DNA of 42,776 bases from Candidatus Bathyarchaeia archaeon (GCA_037481775.1 JBBFKZ010000006.1:1-42776); one strand, 5' to 3'; shown: positions 1-10,464, counted from the first letter of the stretch. Numbers and translations are program-made. The notes: generated by a model not told the origin, from the sequence alone.

Positions 1-2468
1 ACATTGAGCGTGTCGTCGATTAGATCTTTTATCAAGTTTTCTTGTTCTTCGGCTGTTGCGTTGACTTTGGTTTTGTCAATTTTCGGCCACTCGGCTAAAG
101 AGATAAAGGTGCGCTTTCCCATGGCGCTCCAAAGTTCTTCGCACATGTGAGGCGCAAAAGGAGCAAGCAGCCTGAGCCAAATCTCCAATGCTTCTTGAGC
201 GGCTTTGGCGTCTGTTTTTCCCTTTCTGCGCATGTACCAGCGGAAGTCATTCCATACCTCGAACAGGGCGATTTCTAAGGCGCTTCGCGTTTTCAACTCT
301 TCAAGGTTCGCTGTAACGTCCTCGATGCGTTGCTGCAGCTTGCTGAGTAGCCACTTTTCCAAATGTGTATTTTCGTTCGTTTTAGCGGATTCAATTATGC
401 TTAAAGCAAAGCTACGAAGCGACTCTAACTTGCTTTGTATGTCAGCGGCGTTCTCGCTTCTCCAGTCTGGATCGTCCATGCCCTCAGCGCCGAGCAGCAA
501 TGCACATCTGGTGGCGTCGGCGCCGTAGCGTTCAACAGCGTTTTTCATTGTGACAAAATTGCCTTTGGACTTATGCATCTGCTTGCCTTCAATCATTAGC
601 ATGCCGTTGACGCCTATGGCTCGGGGCCAATGTTCCGGCGGGAACAAGGCTACGTGATGGAAAATGCAGAAGGACAAATGGTTCGGCACGAGTTCTTTGG
701 CGGAAACCCGAAGGTCAAAGGGATACCAGTATAGGAATTCTTCACGCATTTCCCGAAGTGTCTTTGCGCTTATTCCCACCACCTTGCTGAGCGCGTCTTC
801 GCTGCCTTTACCGTAAAAGATGTAGTCGAAGACTTCAGGAGTAAGCTGCTCTGGCTTGATGCCGTATGCGCGTATGTGCTTATTAATGGTGTAGAACGCC
901 ATGTAAATGGTGGAGTCGCTGAGGGTTTCAATTATCCAGCCTTTACCCCATGGCAGTGGCGTTCCAAAGCCTGTGGTTCTGGCGCAAGCCCACTCCTTCA
1001 GCCAATCAATAACCGCCAAAAACCATTGCCTTGCAGTTTCAGGGTAAATTTTCATCTGAGCTACTGCTGTTTTGGCCTTCTCCTTCCATGCGGGATCAGA
1101 GTAATTCAGGAACCACTGGTCTGACAGAATCTTTACTATGCAGGGCGTCATGCAGCGGCAGACAACTGGCTGCGGCAGATCATACATGCTGTCCGCGATA
1201 CCCGCTTGCTTGAAGTCTCGTATGAGTGTGTCTTTAACATCTTTCACCGTTTGCCCAGCATATGACCCGCAGTTTTGCTTAAGCACGCCCGCGTGAAACT
1301 CTTTCTTATACAAGATTTTCGTGGCTTCATCCGCTCGAGTGTCATGCTGATCTTTTATGCCCATTTGCGTGACAATCTCAACTGCAGGGTACTCGCCGAA
1401 GCCTTCGACTTTAATTATTGAAATTGGTTTAATCTGCTTAACAAAGTCGGCGTCCAAATTGAACTCTCGCAGCGCCGCGGGGTTTTCCTGTAAATCCTTA
1501 AGCGCCAGCCAGTCATAGGGCGCATGGGCTGGAACGCTGTAAACTACGCCAGTAGCCTGCTTCGGGTCGACAAACCAGCCGGGCAGTATAGGGAATTTCT
1601 CTTTTGTAAGCGGATTCTCAAAGAGTTTTCCAATAAGCTCTCTGCCCTTAAACACGCGCTTTACTTCCACGCTGCGCTCCTGCTCGCGGAGTTTTTCCGC
1701 TGCTTCTCGGCTGATTATCCAGCGTTCGCCATCCACTGTAGCTTCGACGTAATCTGCGTCTGGGTTTATCCACATGTTAGTTACGCCGTAGATTGTTTCA
1801 GGCCTAAATGTGGCTGCGGGCAGAAACGTGTCGCCATCCAGCTTATACTTTATTAACGTGTACTCTTCAGGTGTAACGCCTTCGCCTACTTGCCGGTCAT
1901 GGTCGCCGGTTGGGCTTTTGTCTTTTGGGCACCATACAACCGGATGCGTTCCCTTGGTGACGCAGCCTTTCTCCTTTAGGCGAGTGTACTGCCACTCAAT
2001 AAACTTCTGGTAGGTGGGCATTACTGTGGTGAATTCGCGGCGCCAGTCGATCGAGAAGCCTATGCGCTTCGCAGCCGCTCGCCCCTCGTTAGTGTAATAC
2101 TGCGCCATGTATAATGGGTCAACAAACCGCTTAAGCTCCTCCTCGGGCACGCCGTCAATCTCGCGTAGAACACGAATGTATGCCTCATCGCCCTTTGCCA
2201 CGCGCTCACTGGCGCCCAGCAGCGGCTGCCCAGTCCAGTGCCACGCCCATGGCCAAAGCACATTGTAGCCTTGCATGCGCTTGAAACGGGCATATACGTC
2301 TACACGCGTGGCTGTGAACGTGTGACCCACATGTAATGGGCCATTCATGTAGGGGTAAGGAAACGTGACTAGTAGCTTTTTGCGTTTTGGGTCTGGGTCT
2401 GCCTCGAATATGTGGGCTGCTTCCCAGCGGGCTTGCCATTTCTCCTCAATTTGCTTGAGTTGACTCAT
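1..2468 (-). CDS. leuS: Leucyl-tRNA synthetase, archaeal type (runs off the left edge)
   Basis: Not in the ORF track because it is open at the edge. Minus strand from ATG 2468 reads MSQLKQIEEKWQARWE...TFPYPYMNGPLHVGH (HIGH motif), ...FSIDWRREFTT..., and GKQMHKSKGN at the KMSKS position (567-581, same frame). Confidence 0.95.
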   Translation of the reverse strand, partial: MSQLKQIEEKWQARWEAAHIFEADPDPKRKKLLVTFPYPYMNGPLHVGHTFTATRVDVYARFKRMQGYNVLWPWAWHWTGQPLLGASERVAKGDEAYIRVLREIDGVPEEELKRFVDPLYMAQYYTNEGRAAAKRIGFSIDWRREFTTVMPTYQKFIEWQYTRLKEKGCVTKGTHPVVWCPKDKSPTGDHDRQVGEGVTPEEYTLIKYKLDGDTFLPAATFRPETIYGVTNMWINPDADYVEATVDGERWIISREAAEKLREQERSVEVKRVFKGRELIGKLFENPLTKEKFPILPGWFVDPKQATGVVYSVPAHAPYDWLALKDLQENPAALREFNLDADFVKQIKPISIIKVEGFGEYPAVEIVTQMGIKDQHDTRADEATKILYKKEFHAGVLKQNCGSYAGQTVKDVKDTLIRDFKQAGIADSMYDLPQPVVCRCMTPCIVKILSDQWFLNYSDPAWKEKAKTAVAQMKIYPETARQWFLAVIDWLKEWACARTTGFGTPLPWGKGWIIETLSDSTIYMAFYTINKHIRAYGIKPEQLTPEVFDYIFYGKGSEDALSKVVGISAKTLREMREEFLYWYPFDLRVSAKELVPNHLSFCIFHHVALFPPEHWPRAIGVNGMLMIEGKQMHKSKGNFVTMKNAVERYGADATRCALLLGAEGMDDPDWRSENAADIQSKLESLRSFALSIIESAKTNENTHLEKWLLSKLQQRIEDVTANLEELKTRSALEIALFEVWNDFRWYMRRKGKTDAKAAQEALEIWLRLLAPFAPHMCEELWSAMGKRTFISLAEWPKIDKTKVNATAEEQENLIKDLIDDTLN

Positions 2469-2557: not shown

Positions 2558-3550
2558 ATGGAAGAGAAAATGTCTAATGAAGAAAAACTTATGCTACGTG
2601 CTATTGCAATTTTGCAGGAAAGAGGCAAAAAGGCAGTGGAACTTGCGAAGCAAGTGATCTTACAAGAGGAAGTCGAGTTTAAACCTCTACAAGACGCACT
2701 GCACTATTTTATGGGCGAGTGGCGAGATGTTTTACATCCTGCTATGCTTTCACTTGCATGCGAAGCCGTAGGCGGTGACCCAGACATGACAACTGACGTT
2801 GGCGCAGCAATTGTGCTTCTTGCGGGTGGTGCAGACATTCACGATGACATTATTGATGAATCAACAATTAAGGGTACTCAACTGACAGTTTATGGCAGAT
2901 TCGGAAAAGACATCGCAATATTGGCTGGCGACGCGCTTCTTTTTAAGGGCATGCAACTGTTGCATAGCGCTTGTGAAAAAATTCCAAACGACAAGAAGCA
3001 GAGGATTCTAGAGTCAGTAAAGCAGGCCTTTTTTGAAGTAAGCAGCGCAGAAGCTGAAGAAGCAAGCTATCGAGGGAAATTTGACTTATCTGAGCAGAAG
3101 TATCTGGATATTATTAAGAAAAAGGTTGCAGCTGGAGAAGCATCCATGAAGATCGGTGCGATCATCGGCAACGGGACAACAGAACAAATAGAGCTTCTTA
3201 GGCATTATGGTAGAACTTATGGAATGCTGATGACTATAAGAGACGAATTCGTAGATATGTTTGAAGCTGATGAGCTTGAGAACAGAGCAAAAAAGGAGTG
3301 CTTGCCATTTCCTCTAATGCTTGCACTTCAGAATTCACCTGAAAAAGCAAGAATTCTCCACCTTCTTGAAGGGAAACTAACTGAAAGGGAAATTGAAGAC
3401 GTGCTTGAATTTGTAATGGAGGCCCCTACAACTTATAAACTGAAAGAGTACATGAAGCATAAGATAGATGTTGCGGCACAGCAAATAAGTTCATTCAAAG
3501 TAAATCAAATATTATTATTACTCCTTAACTCAACAATTGAAGATCTCTGA
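2558..3550 (+). CDS. Polyprenyl synthetase-fold (trans-IPPS) protein, atypical; possible peptide/Trp prenyltransferase
   Basis: First Asp-rich motif DIHDDIID and AILAGDALL helix present. Second motif degenerate (IRDEFVD). Canonical GKRxRP, post-FARM RRG and KT motifs absent. Start could be 2543, 2558 or 2570. Confidence 0.85.
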   Translation: MEEKMSNEEKLMLRAIAILQERGKKAVELAKQVILQEEVEFKPLQDALHYFMGEWRDVLHPAMLSLACEAVGGDPDMTTDVGAAIVLLAGGADIHDDIIDESTIKGTQLTVYGRFGKDIAILAGDALLFKGMQLLHSACEKIPNDKKQRILESVKQAFFEVSSAEAEEASYRGKFDLSEQKYLDIIKKKVAAGEASMKIGAIIGNGTTEQIELLRHYGRTYGMLMTIRDEFVDMFEADELENRAKKECLPFPLMLALQNSPEKARILHLLEGKLTEREIEDVLEFVMEAPTTYKLKEYMKHKIDVAAQQISSFKVNQILLLLLNSTIEDL

Positions 3551-3564
3551 TGTGGGCAACCGAG

Positions 3565-3576
3565 AAAAAATAAAAA
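3565..3576 (-). terminator. T-rich archaeal terminator after the small peptide ORF
   Basis: Minus strand TTTTTATTTTTT begins 4 nt after the TAA at 3581-3583. Confidence 0.5.
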
Positions 3577-3580
3577 GTGG

Positions 3581-3622
3581 TTAAGCCCAAAATCCTTTGA
3601 GTCTGATTGGTTTAGTGCGCAA
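3581..3622 (-). CDS. 13-aa peptide MRTKPIRLKGFWA, candidate prenylated peptide precursor
   Basis: TTG start at 3622 preceded by GAGGAAGAGAGGGCTGAAAC (SD-like). In-frame TGA two codons upstream fixes the start. BRE/TATA upstream and T-tract downstream. Confidence 0.6.
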   Translation of the reverse strand: MRTKPIRLKGFWA

Positions 3623-3666
3623 GTTTCAGCCCTCTCTTCCTCGTGTATTTATGTTGAACAAATATG

Positions 3667-3679
3667 CTTAAAAACTTTG
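3667..3679 (-). promoter_or_regulatory. BRE/TATA-like promoter of the peptide gene
   Basis: Minus strand CAAAGTTTTTAAG about 45 nt upstream of the TTG. Confidence 0.5.
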
Positions 3680-3685
3680 CTATAG

Positions 3686-4641
3686 TGTCAAGTCAAGTTT
3701 CCAACGTTACACTCTTATTCTTGATGCAAACATAATGTTTTGTCTGGTGATGGTTTGAGGCTACCTCCTATCATTAGGGGAGCCTTCAGGAAGCTTGTAA
3801 AGGCCAATCAAACAGTCACCAGTATCGCAAAAACGTTCAAGACCACCAGGCAAACCGTTTACCGTTGGCTGAAAAGAGGCAAACACCGCGGAACAGAAAC
3901 CTTCAAAGACAAGCCGCGGCAGCCAAAAGAGTGCAAAGTCACGTTGGAAGTTGAGCTTTCAATCCTCAAGCTACGAACCGCCTTCAACTGGGGAACCGCA
4001 CGCATACAGCAAGGACTTTTCTGCTTGCCACCCTTTATGCTGGAGTCTGCGCAGTGCGTTCAAGGAGTAAACCTTTCAAGAGAAACCATAAACTGAGTCC
4101 TTGCAAGAAACAACCAGAACGGCTATCAGAAAGAGTGCAAGCGCTGGAAGTTCTTCAGGGCCAAAGAGCCTGACGAGCTGTGGCAGATTGATTTCAAAGG
4201 GCCCTTCAGCGTTCAGGGCAAGAAGTACTGGTTTCTGGTGTGCATCGACGACTACAGCAGATTCATCGTTGCGGCTGAGCAGTTTGACCGTGAACTGTCG
4301 ACGGCTGAAACAGTGGCTGTATTGGAGAAAGTTGGGAGGCTTCCGAAGGCTATTTTGAGTGATCATGGGCAGCAGTTTAAGGAGCAGTGGAAGGACTGGT
4401 GCAGTGCTCACGGGATTGATGCACAGTTTGCTCATCCTTCTTATCCGCAGGATAAGGGCAAGGTTGAACGTTGCATCCGAAACTTCAACCGAGAGTTCAT
4501 CAATCAGCTGCGGAAGTTTCCCGGCTGGCTTGGGCATATCTGCGACTACAGAAATTGGTTTAATCATTCACGGTATCATAGAGGCGTCAAAGCCTACCCA
4601 GCAGACCTCTACAAGTGTAACGTTGGAAAGTTGACATGACA
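3686..4641 (+). mobile_element. IS481-family-like insertion sequence, 956 bp
   Basis: 28-bp terminal inverted repeats TGTCAAGTCAAGTTTCCAACGTTACACT / AGTGTAACGTTGGAAAGTTGACATGACA (2 mismatches). 5-bp target duplication TATAG at 3681-3685 and 4642-4646. Single HTH + rve-type DDE transposase. Confidence 0.92.
3755..4639 (+). pseudogene. IS481-like DDE transposase with one in-frame stop (TGA 4094-4096)
   Basis: ORFs 3740..4096 and 4238..4639 are in the same frame. Read-through gives RETIN*VLARNN...ELWQIDFKG...CIDDYSR...ILSDHGQQF...PQDKGKVER. Confidence 0.88.
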
Positions 4642-4739
4642 TATAGTTACGTTTATTGATATATATAGCGAGTCTGGTTTTCAAATACTAAATACTTATT
4701 TCTCAATGTGAATTCATACTAAAATGAGCAGGACGGCTG

Positions 4740-5966
4740 ATGCGGAAAGAGGAAAGAAAAAGCGCATTCTTGGATGAAAAAAAGAAACTTTTCTCGAATA
4801 TTTTCTTAGTTGCTAATCCACTTGTTTGGTATTACACGGTTATTATTGTCTTACAAGAAAACTTGGGCATGATGTCGATAAGTGCGTTAACAACATTTTT
4901 AATTTGGTGTCTTCATTTTTCTGGGCTCATAGTTTCCGCACTAATAGGTGCGTCTCTAACCAAAAATGTCAAGCGCGAACAACTTTTGAAACTTTGGATT
5001 TTATCAAACGTCTTTTCATCGTTGACTTTGATTTTAATTAATACTCCATCGCTGTTGGCCATTAGTTTTCTTTTCATTCTATATGGTGTCTCTCTAGGTT
5101 GGGCCATGCCCACTTGCATGGGCTACTACACAGAATGTGTACCTGTCGAAAATCGAGGACGCACGAGTGGTTTAGCGATGCTTGCTACCGGCATAGGCAT
5201 AGCAATATTTAGTGTCATCAAAATTAGTGATGTCATATTACTTGGTATAATATTTGCGGCGTGGCGCGCATCCAGTTTATTCACTTTCAGCTTTTTGAAG
5301 ACAACAATGATAAGACAGAAAACTAGCGCTTCCTATAAGTCTATAATTAATCAACGTGCCTTTATCATGTACTTCATACCATGGTTTATGTTTTCTTTGG
5401 TTAATTATCTAAGCACACCTTTAGAATCAGGCCTTATTGGCACGGCACATCAATCGACTGAAGCCTTGCCAACTTTTCAAGCGGGTATTATGGGAATCGC
5501 AGCGGTTATAGGCGGTTTTCTCGTAGATTCTGTAGGACGGAAGCGGGTTGCTATAGCAGGTTTTGTTTTGATAGGCTTGGGGACATCTGTTTTGGGAATT
5601 TATCCTGAAAATATGCTTAGTTGGTATTTTAGCGCTATTACAGATGGTGCTGCTTTCGGTTTCCTTTTGGTAATATTTGTTTTAACTATTTGGGGTGATC
5701 TGAGTTTTGATGCACCCAGCGATAAAGTGTATGCTTTAGGCGTTACACCTTTTTTCATTTCGAAATTCCTTGAATTAACTATAGGCGAATCAATAGCGGC
5801 TGGGATTGAACCCTATGCGCTTTTCTCATTTACGGCTTTCTTTCTGTTTTTAGCGGTTTTGCCATTGGTTTATGCACCTGAAACTCTGCCGGAAAAGCAC
5901 ATTAGGGAAAGGGAGCTTAAGAGTTATCTTGAGAAAGCCATGCGCGAAAGGGAAAAATACGCTTAA
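4740..5966 (+). CDS. MFS-type membrane transporter
   Basis: About 12 hydrophobic segments, motif A GFLVDSVGRKR, ENRGR loop, C-terminal APETLP. Confidence 0.88.
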   Translation: MRKEERKSAFLDEKKKLFSNIFLVANPLVWYYTVIIVLQENLGMMSISALTTFLIWCLHFSGLIVSALIGASLTKNVKREQLLKLWILSNVFSSLTLILINTPSLLAISFLFILYGVSLGWAMPTCMGYYTECVPVENRGRTSGLAMLATGIGIAIFSVIKISDVILLGIIFAAWRASSLFTFSFLKTTMIRQKTSASYKSIINQRAFIMYFIPWFMFSLVNYLSTPLESGLIGTAHQSTEALPTFQAGIMGIAAVIGGFLVDSVGRKRVAIAGFVLIGLGTSVLGIYPENMLSWYFSAITDGAAFGFLLVIFVLTIWGDLSFDAPSDKVYALGVTPFFISKFLELTIGESIAAGIEPYALFSFTAFFLFLAVLPLVYAPETLPEKHIRERELKSYLEKAMREREKYA

Positions 5967-5994
5967 ATTAGTGTTTTTGCTTTAAGGGCAAAGC

Positions 5995-7116
5995 ATGTTC
6001 TTCCATGTGATGCTGACGACAGAGTGCAACTTGCAGTGCAGGTACTGCTTTGGAGAAGCCATTGAGGACTTTAATGAGGACTTTGAAGACTTTGACGTAG
6101 ATTATGCTTTGCCCAGAAAAATCAGCTATGAGCCTGCTTTGCTGGCTGAGTTCTGTCGCAGAGACCCCGAATGTGTTTTGACTTTTTACGGCGGCGAGCC
6201 GCTGCTCTGCGCTGACGCCATCAGGCAGATTATGGATTCTGCAAAGCCGCAGCATTTCATGATTCAGACGAACGGTCTGCTGCTGGACAAGCTTGAGCCT
6301 GAATACATTAATCGCTTCCACACCATTCTCGTCTCCATAGACGGCGACGAAGCCTTGACGGACTTTTACCGGGGCAGGGGCACCTTTCGCCGTGTCATCG
6401 ACAACCTGAAACTGATTGTTAGGAATGGTTTTCGAGGCGAATTAATTGCCCGCATGACTGTTATGGAACAAACGGACATTCACCGGCAAGTTACCTGGCT
6501 TGTGAATAATAGCGAGTTCCCGTTTTCTTCGGTTCATTGGCAGCTTAACGCGGGTTTCTGGGCAAACGATTACGCACGACGCAACTTCAAGGAGTGGAGC
6601 CAAACAAGCTATATCCCGGGCTTAAGGCGGCTGGCGGAGTTCTGGGTTGATCACATGGAAGCGGGGCAGGCTGTGCTGCGGCTTTATCCGCTCTTGGGCG
6701 TTGCGCACTCGCTGCTGCATAATGAGCCGAGTTTACTTCGCTGCGGCGGCGGATGGATAAACTACGCCATCCAAACCGACGGCACAGTAATTCCATGCCC
6801 AACCATGTGGGGAATGAAAAACTACTACCTGGGTCACATCGCTCAAGCGAATCCTCTGGCTCTGAAGAAAATTTTCGTGGGCGCACCCTGCACTGAATGT
6901 GACATTTTCAGCGTCTGCGGCGGCCGCTGCTTGTACGCCAACATAACTAAACGATGGAGCAAAGAGGCATACGCTGAAGTTTGCGGCACCGTAAAAGCCT
7001 TGGTAAACGCCGTGACGGCAGAGCTCTCGAGAATCAAACAGCTTATCAAGCAAAAGAAGATACGCTTGAGTGACTTTGACTTCCTGAAATACAATGGCTG
7101 CGAAATCATCCCATAG
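5995..7116 (+). CDS. Radical SAM/SPASM protein (resembles the AF0577/TIGR04084 putative peptide-modifying family)
   Basis: CNLQCRYC, FYGGEPLL, IQTNG, VSIDG, and SPASM cysteines CGGG...PCP...CTEC...VCGGRC...C. Confidence 0.88.
   Translation: MFFHVMLTTECNLQCRYCFGEAIEDFNEDFEDFDVDYALPRKISYEPALLAEFCRRDPECVLTFYGGEPLLCADAIRQIMDSAKPQHFMIQTNGLLLDKLEPEYINRFHTILVSIDGDEALTDFYRGRGTFRRVIDNLKLIVRNGFRGELIARMTVMEQTDIHRQVTWLVNNSEFPFSSVHWQLNAGFWANDYARRNFKEWSQTSYIPGLRRLAEFWVDHMEAGQAVLRLYPLLGVAHSLLHNEPSLLRCGGGWINYAIQTDGTVIPCPTMWGMKNYYLGHIAQANPLALKKIFVGAPCTECDIFSVCGGRCLYANITKRWSKEAYAEVCGTVKALVNAVTAELSRIKQLIKQKKIRLSDFDFLKYNGCEIIP
7101..7116 (+). repeat. Putative attL (core CGAAAT, recoded EIIP* tail)
   Basis: CGAAATCATCCCATAG matches 28708-28723 with only third-codon-position differences. 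Confidence 0.65.
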
Positions 7117-7143
7117 TTTTTTATTGCATCCGTTATATGCGGA

Positions 7144-8457
7144 TCATTTCCGTTTTCGGAAGAAGGCAAGGCCATCCTTTTGAAGCACATATTCAAACCC
7201 GGTTTCTAGTAGCTGTGTGATTTCCTCTTGTGTTTTGGCAACTTTGACGTGGTAGTCGTCTAGCTCCGTGTTTCTAAACATGGCTTTCTCAATGTGTATG
7301 TAGACTTGTGTGCTTTGCAGGTTCTTGTGCCCAAGATGTTCTTTAACGTAATAAACGTCTTTAGTCTGATGGTAAAGCATTGTGCCTTTCCAATGTCTAA
7401 ATGTATGAAATGATATTTGTTGTAGCCTTGGATTTCCCAGTTTCCTCGCAACTCTTTTTCTCTGCACGTAAAAGCAAGTGCGCATAGCATTCGCATCTGC
7501 AAATAGACGCTCCCCGGTTTTAGGAAGGTTCTTAAGCATTTCGACAGCTTTGTTAGATATTGGAAGCATCCGAGGATAACTTCCTTTTTCACCTTTCACC
7601 CTGACAGTTTTCTGCTCGGAATCTACGTCTGTCCACCGTAGGTTTGATATTTCTCCACATCTTGCCCCTGTTTCTTTGAGCAGTTGAAGATAACATGCCA
7701 TCTTTTTGCCTACGGCTGAAATTAAACTGTCAAGCTCCTGCTCTGTAGGAATGAATGGAATTTCAGGTTCTCCGTAGTATATTGGTTTAATCCATGCAAC
7801 ACCAAGATGTTCAAACCACTTATCCAAAATAATGGCTATGTTTCTTTTCGTGCTTGCTGCAAGCCCCGTCTTGGCAAGCCAAGCCTTACAGTCTTCAGGT
7901 TCCAAAAGGTTTACACCTTGTCGAAACATTTTCATCAGGTTTTTACGGTAGTTAGCTATGGTTCCTTGTTTTCTTCCATTCCTTTCAAGCTTCCATAAGA
8001 GTTCAATGATTTTTCCTTTGACATCTTGCTGTGCTGTATGCTTCGTGGCTCCCGCTGCCCGTTTTTCATTCTGCTTTTCTACTGTGGCCAAGGTTAACGC
8101 CGCCTTTCTAGCGGTGGGTTCTCGCCTTTCAGGGTCATTGTTCCCTTGGCAAGAATAATATGAGGCGGAAGGTGGATTTAAGCCGGATGGAGGATTCTTC
8201 CATCCGGTTCTGTCTTTATTTTTGGGATCTGTGAAACGATATCCGCAGTTTCTGCATAGCCAACGCTGAACGCTGGTGCCATCGCCAAGGTATCTTAGGC
8301 CATCTTTGTAAAGGCGATCTGAACCACATTGTGGGCATTTGAGCTGGGACTGTTTCGACGGCTGTTTTTGCGAAAAATCATGTACGGGCTCAATAAGGCT
8401 GTCCGGTTCTACTCTTTCTGAGGAGCAAATCTTTTCTTCAGCCCCAGCTTCAGCCAT
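7144..8457 (-). CDS. Tyrosine recombinase/integrase with N-terminal Zn ribbon
   Basis: Catalytic R (TGARCGE), K (VKGEKG), HxxR (FHTFRH), H (LGH), Y (TQVY). N-terminal CPQC...CRNC. Confidence 0.93.
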   Translation of the reverse strand: MAEAGAEEKICSSERVEPDSLIEPVHDFSQKQPSKQSQLKCPQCGSDRLYKDGLRYLGDGTSVQRWLCRNCGYRFTDPKNKDRTGWKNPPSGLNPPSASYYSCQGNNDPERREPTARKAALTLATVEKQNEKRAAGATKHTAQQDVKGKIIELLWKLERNGRKQGTIANYRKNLMKMFRQGVNLLEPEDCKAWLAKTGLAASTKRNIAIILDKWFEHLGVAWIKPIYYGEPEIPFIPTEQELDSLISAVGKKMACYLQLLKETGARCGEISNLRWTDVDSEQKTVRVKGEKGSYPRMLPISNKAVEMLKNLPKTGERLFADANAMRTCFYVQRKRVARKLGNPRLQQISFHTFRHWKGTMLYHQTKDVYYVKEHLGHKNLQSTQVYIHIEKAMFRNTELDDYHVKVAKTQEEITQLLETGFEYVLQKDGLAFFRKRK

Positions 8458-8461
8458 ACGA

Positions 8462-8689
8462 TTACCTTCTACTTTCCTCTACAATGGCAAGGGCGAAGCC
8501 CGCATTCTTGCGCTTCTTTTTTGGTTCGCGTTTCAATAGTTGCCTTGCAAGTTTTCGGCATTTTCGTGCAAGCAGTTTCTCTTTAAGAGTTGGAAGCGGA
8601 TCTATTAGAGGTGGCTCTTTGCTTTTGCCTTTATTATTCGCTTCCTTTTTAGAGTGGGGATAGTCCCAACTGTGGTTCAAGGTTTTCAC
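8462..8689 (-). CDS. Small basic hypothetical protein
   Basis: Overlaps the helicase stop by 4 nt and ends 4 nt before the integrase start, so operon-like coupling. Confidence 0.55.
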   Translation of the reverse strand: MKTLNHSWDYPHSKKEANNKGKSKEPPLIDPLPTLKEKLLARKCRKLARQLLKREPKKKRKNAGFALAIVEESRR

Positions 8690-10464
8690 TTCACTCCTAG
8701 CTTGCCAACTTGGTTGATGTCGAAAAGAACTCCTTCGCTTTTCATGATGTCTATGATTCGTGTCGGTTGCTCAGTTAAGCCTGAGAGAAACTCTGTCAAG
8801 CCGAACAAGTCAACAGTGTTTTCGTCATCCTTGTTTTGTTCACACCACTCTCTTGCTTTAACAAGAATTTCCTGCAAAGCCTTCTCTCCTTGCCATCCCT
8901 CTTCAATGCCTAGCTTTCTTAAGACGCGGTCTGTGAAGATGTTGCAAAGCCGGGATTTTTTCTCTGAGTCACCTGGAACTGGTACTTCAAGCTTGGTTCT
9001 GTTTAAGGCGTCTGAGAAGCCGAACTCTAACATGAACTCTTTAAATTTAGCTGGAGAAACTCCTTGCCCATACTCCTTTTTCAAAACTTCATTGTACTTG
9101 TCGTAGATTTCCTTATTGCTGATTTTTACAAGTCCATCTTCAGTTATGTAATCCCTGTTGTCCTTTTTCTCGATCCATAAATCTGTTAAAACTTGTCTTA
9201 AAACGCCAATCAAGCCAATTTCTGTTCTTTCACCTTCCTCTAGCAGCTTCTGTTGGAAGGTTTTAACAATGTCATCGTTGCATTGAATTTTTAAGAGGTT
9301 TGATAGGGCAAAGCATAGAAACATTAGCTCCGTGTTTCTGCCGCTGACTTGACTAACTTGATTAACTTGACCTTCTAATAAGAGAGTTTTCTTTTTCTCA
9401 AACAATAATTGCCTCAGTTTTTCGGCTTGAACGTCTATACTGCTGTAGCTGATTTTTAGGTCAAGTGTGTCAAGTATGTCAAGTTGAGAACCATTTATGG
9501 CGTGGAAATCATTTCCTTTAAATGTTAAAGCATTGTCCAAATACCAGAGGAAATTCTCTGTGTAAACGTATTCTGCGAAGCTTGCCTTATCCATGTTTAC
9601 AATTGGATATTGCGGGTTGCTCGTCTCCCTCACATGGATTGGAACAGTTCTCGTCTGCAAGGCTTCTTCGATTTCAGAATGCACTGTAAAAAGCTTGGGT
9701 CCAAAAACTACGTAGCTTTCAGTTTCAAGCGTGTCAGGATTAACCCTGCTATATTTTAAGCCTCGTCTGTATCCTTGTCTGAAAATGCAGTTTAGGTCGG
9801 AATCCTTTGTGCCTGCAACCGCGTCAAGCTCATCAACCATCAACGTTATTTTATGTTCCTGAACAGCCCTAGCTACGAAGGGCGGGCTTAGATTGCCAGT
9901 CAAATAGCCGTGTCTGCAGATCAAAATAATGGCTTCACCAGTGACTGTTTTGCCTCCGCCAAACTCGCCTTTCACACCAAGATAAAATACAACGGGCAAG
10001 AGATCAACAAGCCATGTTTGCTGAATAAAAAGTTGGGTGACGCTGAACTCGAAGGATCTTGGAAAATCAAGAAATGTTCTCAGGTAAATTCCGTTGAGTT
10101 TCCAAAGCTGTTCTGTAGATAAGCTTTGTTTTTCGCCTTTAACCCATTTCTCAACTGATTCGTAAGCTGGAAAACTAAAAAGGAATTCTCGAGGCGGCTT
10201 ATCTTTGAAATAGTATTGTTCGCCTTCAACCTCTATAAGCCAGTGGGGCTTTCTTTTTTCTTCTTCATCTTCGAACTCGATCTTTAGCGATGTGAATCCC
10301 CTTTTGCCTTCCATTGTCTTGTAAACATATTTGCCTACAGCCACTGGTTCATAGACAAACTTTTCAGTTAATCCGCCTGCAGGATGTAGAACATGAGGCG
10401 CCTCTCTCAATTTTTTAGCTCTTTCCTCAGCCTCAAGTTTTTCAAGCTCCTCGCCTATGCCCAC
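8686..10464 (-). CDS. P-loop ATPase, probable replicative helicase of the element
   Basis: Walker A GEFGGGKT, Walker B LMVDELD, FRQGYRRG; directly downstream of a primase. Confidence 0.72.
   Translation of the reverse strand: MGIGEELEKLEAEERAKKLREAPHVLHPAGGLTEKFVYEPVAVGKYVYKTMEGKRGFTSLKIEFEDEEEKRKPHWLIEVEGEQYYFKDKPPREFLFSFPAYESVEKWVKGEKQSLSTEQLWKLNGIYLRTFLDFPRSFEFSVTQLFIQQTWLVDLLPVVFYLGVKGEFGGGKTVTGEAIILICRHGYLTGNLSPPFVARAVQEHKITLMVDELDAVAGTKDSDLNCIFRQGYRRGLKYSRVNPDTLETESYVVFGPKLFTVHSEIEEALQTRTVPIHVRETSNPQYPIVNMDKASFAEYVYTENFLWYLDNALTFKGNDFHAINGSQLDILDTLDLKISYSSIDVQAEKLRQLLFEKKKTLLLEGQVNQVSQVSGRNTELMFLCFALSNLLKIQCNDDIVKTFQQKLLEEGERTEIGLIGVLRQVLTDLWIEKKDNRDYITEDGLVKISNKEIYDKYNEVLKKEYGQGVSPAKFKEFMLEFGFSDALNRTKLEVPVPGDSEKKSRLCNIFTDRVLRKLGIEEGWQGEKALQEILVKAREWCEQNKDDENTVDLFGLTEFLSGLTEQPTRIIDIMKSEGVLFDINQVGKLGVK

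Follow-up and report, generated by a model that had tools for sequence, protein, structure and literature searches.

A conserved module of synthase paralog, micropeptide and transporter in Bathyarchaeia, possibly serving the prenylation of a near-terminal tryptophan

Can an archaeon attach a prenyl group to a tryptophan residue of a small peptide, as some bacteria do? This question is raised by a locus near one end of a 42,776-nt stretch of DNA from Candidatus Bathyarchaeia archaeon (GCA_037481775.1 JBBFKZ010000006.1:1-42776), referred to here as the window, whose host genome (G000) comprises 1.82 Mb in 54 contigs. A gene for a protein with the isoprenyl diphosphate synthase (IPPS) fold converges there on a 13-codon open reading frame (ORF) with a penultimate tryptophan; this small ORF is divergent from the gene of a major facilitator superfamily (MFS) transporter, which is followed by a radical S-adenosylmethionine (SAM)/SPASM gene. 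A preliminary description made from the DNA alone had likened this arrangement to the ComQ/ComX system of Bacillus, and the coordinates, together with the codons that we read directly, bear out the arrangement as such. Comparison with related genomes indicates that a three-gene module (synthase paralog, small ORF and MFS gene), of which this locus represents a single copy, is conserved among Bathyarchaeia and also in one or more further lineages of the Thermoproteota. As an explanation of this module we tentatively favor prenylation of the near-terminal tryptophan of the peptide by the paralog, followed by export of the product, a reading to which we grant almost an even chance. The genes and signals concerned are the following.

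2558-3550, plus strand: polyprenyl_synt protein (PF00348, 94.2 bits), the synthase paralog and putative peptide prenyltransferase
3581-3622, minus strand: small ORF of 13 codons plus stop with a TTG start, (M)RTKPIRLKGFWA, the putative leaderless precursor peptide
3623-3680, minus strand: promoter and leader of the small ORF, with a TATA-like TTTTTAAG at 3667-3674, a TGT-N3-ACA palindrome at 3652-3660 and a Shine-Dalgarno (SD)-like GAGGAAGAGAGGG at 3630-3642
4740-5966, plus strand: MFS transporter (MFS_1, 66 bits), putative exporter of the peptide product
5995-7116, plus strand: radical SAM/SPASM protein of TIGR04084 (AF0577 family; 305.9 bits against a cut-off of 225)

Taken from the window alone, the small ORF could be a product of chance. 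Its codons are TTG CGC ACT AAA CCA ATC AGA CTC AAA GGA TTT TGG GCT TAA, read as (M)RTKPIRLKGFWA, and its stop lies 30 nt past that of the synthase gene on the opposite strand. Counting both strands, 613 ORFs of 10-25 amino acids are present in the window, 24 of which have a tryptophan within the last three residues; the ending [FY]W-x-stop is found among the 613 in this small ORF only. The comparative data contradict a chance ORF and mark the small ORF as a genuine gene, since it is conserved in relatives. A search pattern (10-30 codons; start ATG, GTG, TTG or ACG; three or more K/R among residues 1-10; a [PVLIK][IVLMFPTA]R motif placed 2-10 residues ahead of the stop) was applied to 92 non-identical related loci. 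A basic ORF of 12-29 amino acids was detected at the matching place and on the matching strand in 84/92 loci. The other strand gave 4/92, shuffling of the regions gave 110 of 1840 (6%), and the genome-wide background amounts to 0.08 expected per region. Five of the eight loci missed by the pattern (L093, L094, L102, L128 and L131) carry variants that were accepted by eye, which brings the count to 89 of 92. The flanks of homologous synthase genes, where the preliminary description had advised looking for a conserved tryptophan-ending ORF, do contain such an ORF, and on this point the outcome favors that description. All families of arginine and proline codons are used at the conserved motif (Arg: AGA 38, AGG 15, CGA 19, CGC 5, CGG 3, CGT 4; Pro: CCA 45, CCT 18, CCC 9, CCG 6), and selection therefore acts on the peptide and not on the DNA or RNA.

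The start of the small ORF varies among the loci. Its two closest relatives start at an ATG; the equivalent in the window (region 3623-3631) is a CTG that is out of frame with the KPIR core, so that only the TTG is left as a start, preceded at a distance of 7 nt by an SD-like GAGGG. Six other loci (L070, L078, L080, L081, L087 and L092) have a conserved ACG at the start position, 5-8 nt after a strong GGAGG, and contain no in-frame ATG, GTG or TTG between the SD sequence and the KPIR motif; the ACG may be a non-canonical start codon in these six loci. A search of genome G000 for further copies of the small ORF gave 81 tryptophan-ended pattern matches of random appearance, none of them family-like besides the locus itself.

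The small ORF does not stand alone. In a first sample of 41 related genomes, the synthase paralog is present at 171 bits or more in 26 (G000 included), while all other matches score at most 101 bits. Most of these loci show, just downstream of the paralog and on the opposite strand, a short basic ORF with a K-P-I-R-like core and a tail ending in tryptophan. Larger stretches from 20 of these genomes and the window make up 21 loci, and the order synthase paralog (plus strand), small ORF (minus strand) and MFS gene (plus strand) is kept in 21/21, despite differing upstream genes (LeuRS, the leucyl-tRNA synthetase gene, in nine; PadR-type genes in ten). The stop of the small ORF lies, in most loci, between 27 nt inside the synthase gene and about 65 nt past its stop. 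A wider sample comprised 245 relatives at one genome per species; among its best 80 loci, almost all titled Bathyarchaeota or Bathyarchaeia, the MFS gene follows the paralog in 71 of the 74 further loci that are long enough to include it. Across 301 Thermoproteota genomes, a profile built from the paralog gave 255-343 bits in four groups outside the class (f25, f40, f47 and f37), as compared with about 140-160 bits for canonical synthases in the same search. Eighteen distant or extra paralog loci were then inspected for the small ORF and the MFS gene. The trio is complete in 7/7 loci of f25, another class-level lineage, where the peptides follow the pattern MK.YNPTP[VI]R.W.P.. and where the small ORF is duplicated in tandem in two loci (L158 and L159), the peptides of both copies being identical or nearly so and ending in PVRLWVPG. 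Judged by these gene comparisons, the enzyme-peptide-transporter module is real and widespread.

What do the peptides have in common? The statistics given here for the peptide family cover 89 peptides, those for the enzyme 95 sequences. Most of the peptides measure 12-26 residues and their median net charge is +5; a Lys/Arg-rich N-terminal part leads to a P-[IV]-R core, which is sometimes doubled (PIRPIR), and to a tail of 3-9 residues. Tryptophan is present in 79/89 peptides, and the last tryptophan is C-terminal in 18 and penultimate in 54, together 72/89. The residue preceding the first tryptophan is most commonly Gly (20/79), with Phe or Tyr amounting to 30. The tails follow the tree of the enzymes, with clades characterized by ..RFWWR, ..IRG.WW and ..GGWA.

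The synthase-fold protein encoded next to the small ORF is not the housekeeping enzyme of its host, since a second, canonical polyprenyl synthase is encoded on contig C22 of the same genome (220.9 bits); the gene in the window is therefore a paralog. It falls far below the cut-offs of all NCBIfam synthase models (best IdsA, 129.9 versus 468; GGPP_syn, 111.1 versus 500). An AlphaFold2 model built with 20 relatives is all-helical (pLDDT 92.6), and its top matches in Foldseek are trans-IPPS enzymes of archaeal and bacterial origin. The archaeal geranylgeranyl diphosphate (GGPP) synthase 1wy0 is the best match both by fold (TM 0.84) and by sequence (139 bits); the indole farnesyltransferase Ord1 is also among the matches (Foldseek rank 23; 96 bits by sequence). 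With respect to its start, ATG 2570 is possible for the gene, and the ESM Atlas record begins at residue 5, which corresponds to window position 2570.

The first Asp-rich motif, H-DDxxD, is intact, as H95, D96, D97 and D100 are each found in 95/95 sequences; E168 and R243 are invariant as well, and K189 (93), D233 (92), R228 (88) and W55 (86) are nearly so. The second Asp-rich motif reads R-D-E-F-V-D in the window and R-[DE]-[ED]-x-x-D in the family (RDDxxD in f25), with its last D kept in 92/95 and the Arg directly before the motif in 88/95. The classical Koyama/Poulter regions I, III, IV, V and VI (GGKRxR, RRG, GQxxD, KT, FQ and GK) form the isopentenyl diphosphate (IPP) and diphosphate sites of chain-elongating synthases, and five classical conserved regions are altered here. 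Relative to the canonical synthase encoded elsewhere in this genome, GGKR-W-R has become GE-WRDVLH, RRG has become KG, GQxxD has become AExxE, KT has become KV and FQ has become MT; moreover, the GK/EGKRT region is replaced by an ELxxR...KKECL stretch and the basic C-terminus by LEDL. The M-T of the window at the position of the canonical F-Q is variable in relatives (T, A, S, G, I, V, L, N). Neither the IPP-site motifs nor the equivalog score of a chain-elongating trans-IPPS are thus found in this protein. To judge from these motifs, the enzyme has kept the ability to bind an allylic diphosphate and to ionise it, and is not built for IPP; with the donor site kept and the IPP site lost, a different acceptor is expected.

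How the parts might work together can be outlined as follows. The enzyme, derived from archaeal GGPP-type synthases, would bind and ionise an allylic prenyl diphosphate but would have lost its IPP site. The peptide would be the product of a separately transcribed leaderless gene, 12-26 residues long, and in its short hydrophobic tail the final or next-to-final position is usually taken by tryptophan. The enzyme, for which the median pI of the family is 5.6, would transfer the prenyl group to the indole of this tryptophan, as ComQ, StheQ and PalQ do in bacteria, and a donor of long chain could be accommodated in view of the small residues found at -4 and -5 ahead of the first Asp-rich motif. 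The cationic lipopeptide would be exported by the MFS protein and might serve extracellularly as a signal or as an antimicrobial that acts on membranes. The data show the genes with their linkage and conservation, the selection on the peptide and the motifs of the enzyme; the action of the enzyme on the peptide, tryptophan as the acceptor, export by the MFS protein and the biological role are inferred. A predicted complex of the enzyme and the peptide from locus L063 (score 0.02, mark 0.32) speaks neither for nor against the proposal, the input being a partly non-natural 30-codon read (L063:5050-5139, minus strand) made up of the 17-residue peptide and 13 upstream codons that are probably not translated. 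The idea that the small ORF might encode the small subunit of a heteromeric synthase was set aside on grounds of size and motifs: known small subunits exceed 100 amino acids, and known large subunits of this kind keep all canonical motifs.

Prenylation of peptide tryptophan by synthase-fold enzymes is documented in the accounts cited here only from bacteria, namely for ComQ, PalQ, ChrPC and StheQ. A census of ComQXPA loci lists none outside the Firmicutes (PMC4008528), the StheQ enzyme of Sphaerobacter is presented as an extension of the range to the Chloroflexi (preprint 10.64898/2026.08.29.745113), and both a 2026 review (PMC13290415) and that 2026 preprint treat spread beyond the Firmicutes as news. 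In the literature searched we found no archaeal system of this type, in keeping with what the preliminary description had said, with the proviso that published similarity networks may hold archaeal nodes. The acceptor tryptophan is C-terminal in PalX (PMC10853753), second from the end in StheX (preprint 10.64898/2026.08.29.745113) and third or fourth from the end in ComX (PMC5331326). The archaeal peptides resemble ComX and StheX in that tails vary while tryptophan is conserved, and the trans-IPPS fold, the retained first Asp-rich motif and a tryptophan placed 2-4 residues from the C-terminus are common to the ComQ and StheQ systems and the one described here. Short basic C-terminal fragments suffice as substrates in these bacterial systems, an 11-residue basic fragment of ComX being accepted by ComQ (PMC5331326).

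The differences are equally marked. ComQ requires a pseudo-second motif, N/G-D-x-x-x, in place of DDxxD (PMC5331326), whereas the paralog has R-[DE]-[ED]-x-x-D. The comX gene is co-directional with comQ and overlaps with it, and comP and comA come next; the small ORF of the archaeal locus converges on the enzyme gene under a promoter of its own and lacks an accompanying two-component system. No sensor histidine kinase or response regulator gene is found beside the enzyme and peptide genes among the ORFs of window positions 1-10 kb, and the neighbors in relatives encode PadR, ABC-2, amidohydrolase, ParA-like and TrmB-like proteins. Precursors of the ComX type are 53-73 amino acids long and processed. 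PalQ and PalX of Paenibacillus alvei offer a likeness in that an enzyme of the isoprenoid-synthase fold lies beside a small precursor gene with a C-terminal acceptor tryptophan. PalX is, however, a precursor of the NHLP type, with its core after residue 72 and a leader that is cleaved, in contrast to the leaderless 12-26 residues found here; the PalQ cluster includes a histidine kinase where this locus has an MFS transporter; and PalQ forms its own sequence cluster, remote from the trans-isoprenyl diphosphate synthases, whereas the paralog is closest to archaeal GGPP synthase. Gly before the tryptophan favors PalQ (PMC13290415), and Gly is the commonest residue at that place in the archaeal family too. 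The characterized Trp prenyltransferases share a Gln just upstream of the second motif (PMC13290415), present in ComQ, PalQ, ChrPC and Ord1, which the paralog lacks. Ord1 (PDB 9v4g-i, PMC12510300) shares with it the all-alpha IPPS fold and a second motif that begins with D-D, is a detectable relative in sequence and structure, and prenylates an indole in place of IPP; it differs in its free indole substrate and in Y215/Q216 before the motif, where the archaeal family has no Gln and the near-invariant Arg, and no accompanying peptide gene has been reported for it. Canonical archaeal GGPP synthase (1wy0; IdsA/GGPP_syn) has the same first Asp-rich motif and gives the best sequence and fold match, yet it differs in the five altered regions, and the paralog scores far below its equivalog cut-offs.

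Taken together, the paralog appears to work in the manner of the ComQ and PalQ systems while standing outside the ComQ family, because it lacks the motif features of both ComQ and PalQ; independent descent from an archaeal GGPP synthase is probable from the ranking of HMM and fold matches. Membership in the ComQ family is not supported: the second motif is R-[DE]-[ED]-x-x-D, the upstream Gln is absent, the ORF is convergent, a kinase gene is lacking and one peptide in nine or so (10/89) has no tryptophan. What does agree with the bacterial systems is a small precursor gene adjacent to the enzyme gene (84/92 loci) with a tryptophan at or near the C-terminus (72/89 peptides), if in an orientation that differs from that of comQ-comX.

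The small ORF is equipped with expression signals of its own. An alignment of 78 upstream regions yields the consensus CAAA.CTTTTAAG....TGTTCAACA...ATACAG..GG; a TATA-like hexamer lies at -62 to -35 in 72/83 upstream regions and an SD-like motif is present in 67/83. Between the two sits the TGT-N3-ACA palindrome, whose core pairs are kept in 76-77 of 78 sequences and whose outer arms covary weakly (49 cells changed on both sides versus 31 +/- 5 in shuffles); a second copy occurs upstream of the TATA box in some lineages. The palindrome looks like an operator for a dimeric regulator. Loose searches of genome G000 for the motif elsewhere gave 8 and 7 matches.

In the window 1117 nt separate the small ORF from the MFS gene because an insertion sequence (IS), which the preliminary description did not mention, intervenes. 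It lies outside the gene cassette and is made up as follows.

3681-4641, plus strand: IS481-family insertion sequence of 961 bp, recognized by helix-turn-helix (HTH) and rve domains, the IS481 model, repeats and an empty site
3740-4096 and 4238-4639, plus strand: IS481-type transposase in two fragments (family scans)

The transposase frame 3740-4639 is open throughout except for one in-frame TGA at 4097-4099. The element ends in imperfect terminal inverted repeats of about 27 nt, is flanked by a TATAG target duplication and occurs in a single copy in genome G000; with its HTH and DDE (rve) transposase and an empty site it has all the marks of an IS481 member. The empty site is provided by a 6866-nt contig of run X5, which stems from another sample, that joins position 3680 to 4642, skipping exactly the 961 nt, and that is otherwise about 96% identical to the window (46 and 73 differences in its two pieces). 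The ancestral spacing from the start of the small ORF to the start of the MFS gene, as this contig implies, is therefore 156 nt, with the two genes back to back; the ancestral spacer between the synthase and MFS genes is 228 nt, while spacers in relatives span 77-335 nt and mostly measure about 170-217 nt. The element is a recent insertion between two divergent promoters. It entered just upstream of the TATA-like box of the small ORF and left the box in place.

The radical SAM/SPASM gene calls for separate consideration. Its product belongs to TIGR04084 by score (305.9 bits versus 225; Radical_SAM 46.2 bits; SPASM 20.1 bits, just under the Pfam cut-off of 21.5), and its next-best models are peptide maturases (PapB, 2.1e-29; also YhhB, DynA and FxsB). 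It follows the MFS gene in 17 of the 21 loci of the first sample and in 42/60 loci from the best 80 of the 245 relatives. TIGR04084 reaches its cut-off in 130/301 Thermoproteota genomes and in the Sulfolobus acidocaldarius control. In twenty TIGR04084 loci of other lineages, neither a synthase paralog nor an MFS gene lies closer than 6 kb and no neighbor is conserved, and their flanks gave nine pattern matches for a small ORF against 14.6 expected, none of them family-like. The co-occurrence of a radical SAM maturase and a precursor that marks clusters for peptides made by the ribosome and modified after translation (RiPPs) is accordingly not seen in these 20 loci. One genome (G030, 99% complete) has the trio in tandem-duplicated form and no TIGR04084 match, another (G040) has the radical SAM gene about 205 kb from the trio, and in f25 the trios have no adjacent radical SAM gene. 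The literature searched contained no occurrence of TIGR04084 and gave no functional description, the matches listed for AF0577 looking unrelated by title. From this distribution the gene is most likely a lineage-specific neighbor or an optional accessory and not part of the core; the doubt that the preliminary description had voiced about its membership was well placed.

Several observations weigh against prenylation of the peptide tryptophan by the paralog. Ten of the 89 peptides have no tryptophan, three of these have no aromatic residue at all, and the tails concerned include YIIP, TLPL, TFPF, IFPV, VML, AGP, IYA, LYAV, LYHI and LYYV; the most conserved feature of the peptides is therefore P-[IV]-R and not tryptophan. 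In a tree of 89 enzymes, made by a quick method and not by a full maximum-likelihood search, tryptophan was lost from the last four residues in at least four changes, concentrated in one clade of 18 rows of which ten lack such a residue. With respect to the enzyme, an acidic second motif was reported as unsuitable for Trp prenylation in the ComQ work (PMC5331326), and the paralog has such a motif instead of N/G-D-x-x-x, and no Gln upstream of it. Members of the family differ in how far the IPP site has been lost, since those of f25 retain some basic residues of region I. The peptide and enzyme genes are not co-transcribed because they are convergent. With regard to the comparative evidence, the 84 detections among 92 loci stem from a pattern composed after peptides had been seen and from loci that are kin and not independent, and in three loci (L098, L100 and L122), where the gene context differs, neither pattern nor eye found a small ORF. 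Eleven of the 18 distant or extra paralog loci are without a recognizable small ORF, namely five of f40/f47, which also lack the MFS gene, four in G300, the second copy in G183, and the locus of G203. Because f25 keeps the trio while these 11 loci do not have the small ORF, the module is, by its distribution, old and mobile within the phylum without accompanying every paralog. Finally, the window copy itself might be decaying or weakened, since the ancestral ATG is lost and the IS adjoins the promoter.

Some of these points fit better with a functional peptide that is not the substrate of the enzyme, which is the main rival explanation. The peptide would be unmodified, or modified in another way, and would act as a cationic membrane-active or regulatory micropeptide in partnership with the MFS protein or the enzyme, while the paralog would prenylate a non-peptide acceptor moved by the transporter. 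The invariance of the basic stretch and of P-[IV]-R in the face of missing tryptophans speaks for it, as do the retention of both acidic motifs by an enzyme with neither the ComQ nor the PalQ signature and the promoter that the small ORF has to itself. Yet a C-terminal or penultimate tryptophan, as found in 72/89 peptides, would be needless in an unmodified amphipathic peptide; the linkage of enzyme, peptide and MFS genes persists across changing neighborhoods and across classes; and no other acceptor-related gene is conserved in the module. We consider this rival unlikely, while granting it a substantial minority share of the probability. A peptide that is chiefly the substrate of the radical SAM/SPASM enzyme, which would install an Arg/Lys-to-Trp C-C cross-link of the streptide, darobactin or triceptide type with prenylation absent or secondary, would agree with the frequent position of that gene behind the MFS gene, with PapB-like maturases as its next-best models and with the spacing of Arg/Lys and Trp, which are 2-4 residues apart in 61/78 cases. 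The occurrence of TIGR04084 in 130/301 genomes, its 20 loci elsewhere that have neither paralog, MFS gene nor peptide, and the trios of G030, G040 and f25 that do without an adjacent copy make this improbable; a RiPP pathway centered on the radical SAM enzyme is possible as an accessory only.

Could the small ORF be a regulatory device instead, whether as a leader or arrest peptide that is translated, or as no more than the 5' portion of an antisense RNA extending into the synthase gene's 3' end? Its convergent position, with the stop close to or inside the synthase gene in most loci, would suit such a role, and the peptide of one relative ends in IRAGP, which we take to resemble a bacterial arrest motif. 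No downstream gene on that strand is present, however, that could be regulated, and the conservation at the amino acid level, the switches between the CGN and AGR codon families and the conserved C-terminal position of tryptophan point to a functional peptide, so that the regulatory explanation is very improbable. Still less credence, indeed next to none, can be given to the view that the small ORF arose by chance and is no gene. Its 13 codons, its TTG start and the 613 ORFs of similar size in the window, 24 with a late tryptophan, would allow it; the 84 of 92 loci as against 4/92 on the other strand and 6% in shuffles, the codon evidence and the conserved expression signals contradict it.

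Prenylation of the near-terminal tryptophan, followed by export, is therefore the explanation that we carry forward, in a form whose wider version we hold with slightly more reserve than its core: archaea may have evolved peptide lipidation independently, with the paralog prenylating the terminal tryptophan of polycationic peptides, the MFS protein exporting them as pheromones or antimicrobials and the palindromic operator possibly under the control of PadR. If true, these would be the first peptide pheromones or lipopeptide antimicrobials known in the Archaea, widespread in the Bathyarchaeia and in a second lineage of the Thermoproteota. Bathyarchaeia are globally abundant and mostly uncultured sediment archaea; cell-to-cell signaling and antimicrobial peptides of archaea are poorly known. 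It would also represent a second, independent route from a chain-elongating synthase to a peptide prenyltransferase, one on which the acidic second motif has been kept, and an active enzyme that takes very short, leaderless cationic peptides would be attractive for peptide lipidation. As one soluble enzyme and one 13-residue peptide make up the reaction proposed, the module is readily testable in vitro.

The genes around the module differ from locus to locus. In the window they are the following, identified by ORF listing, with family scans for the first two.

3-2468, minus strand: leucyl-tRNA synthetase (LeuRS)
7144-8457, minus strand: XerA-like integrase with an N-terminal zinc-ribbon
8686-10464, minus strand: 592-aa ORF without family assignment

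The window has LeuRS where about 10/21 relatives (L037, L040, L042, L049, L052 and others) carry two divergent genes for PadR-family regulators ahead of the paralog. Beyond the PadR pair lie an amidohydrolase gene, genes for an ABC ATPase and two ABC-2 permeases, an ADP-forming acyl-CoA ligase-like gene and a kinase-like gene. In L038, L039 and L042, which have no radical SAM gene, the MFS gene is followed on the opposite strand by genes for a ParA-like ATPase and a TrmB-like small protein. The paralog itself occurs as tandem duplicates (G030:C13:75578-77633 and G288:C31:22690-24748), and genome G300 carries four loci, one of which (L168), with adjacent MFS and radical SAM genes, has no room for a small ORF. 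On the other side of the module, the contigs of runs X2, X4 and X5 part from the window at position 7106, just ahead of the stop codon of the radical SAM gene, and an integrated element probably begins near this point (region about 7106-10464).

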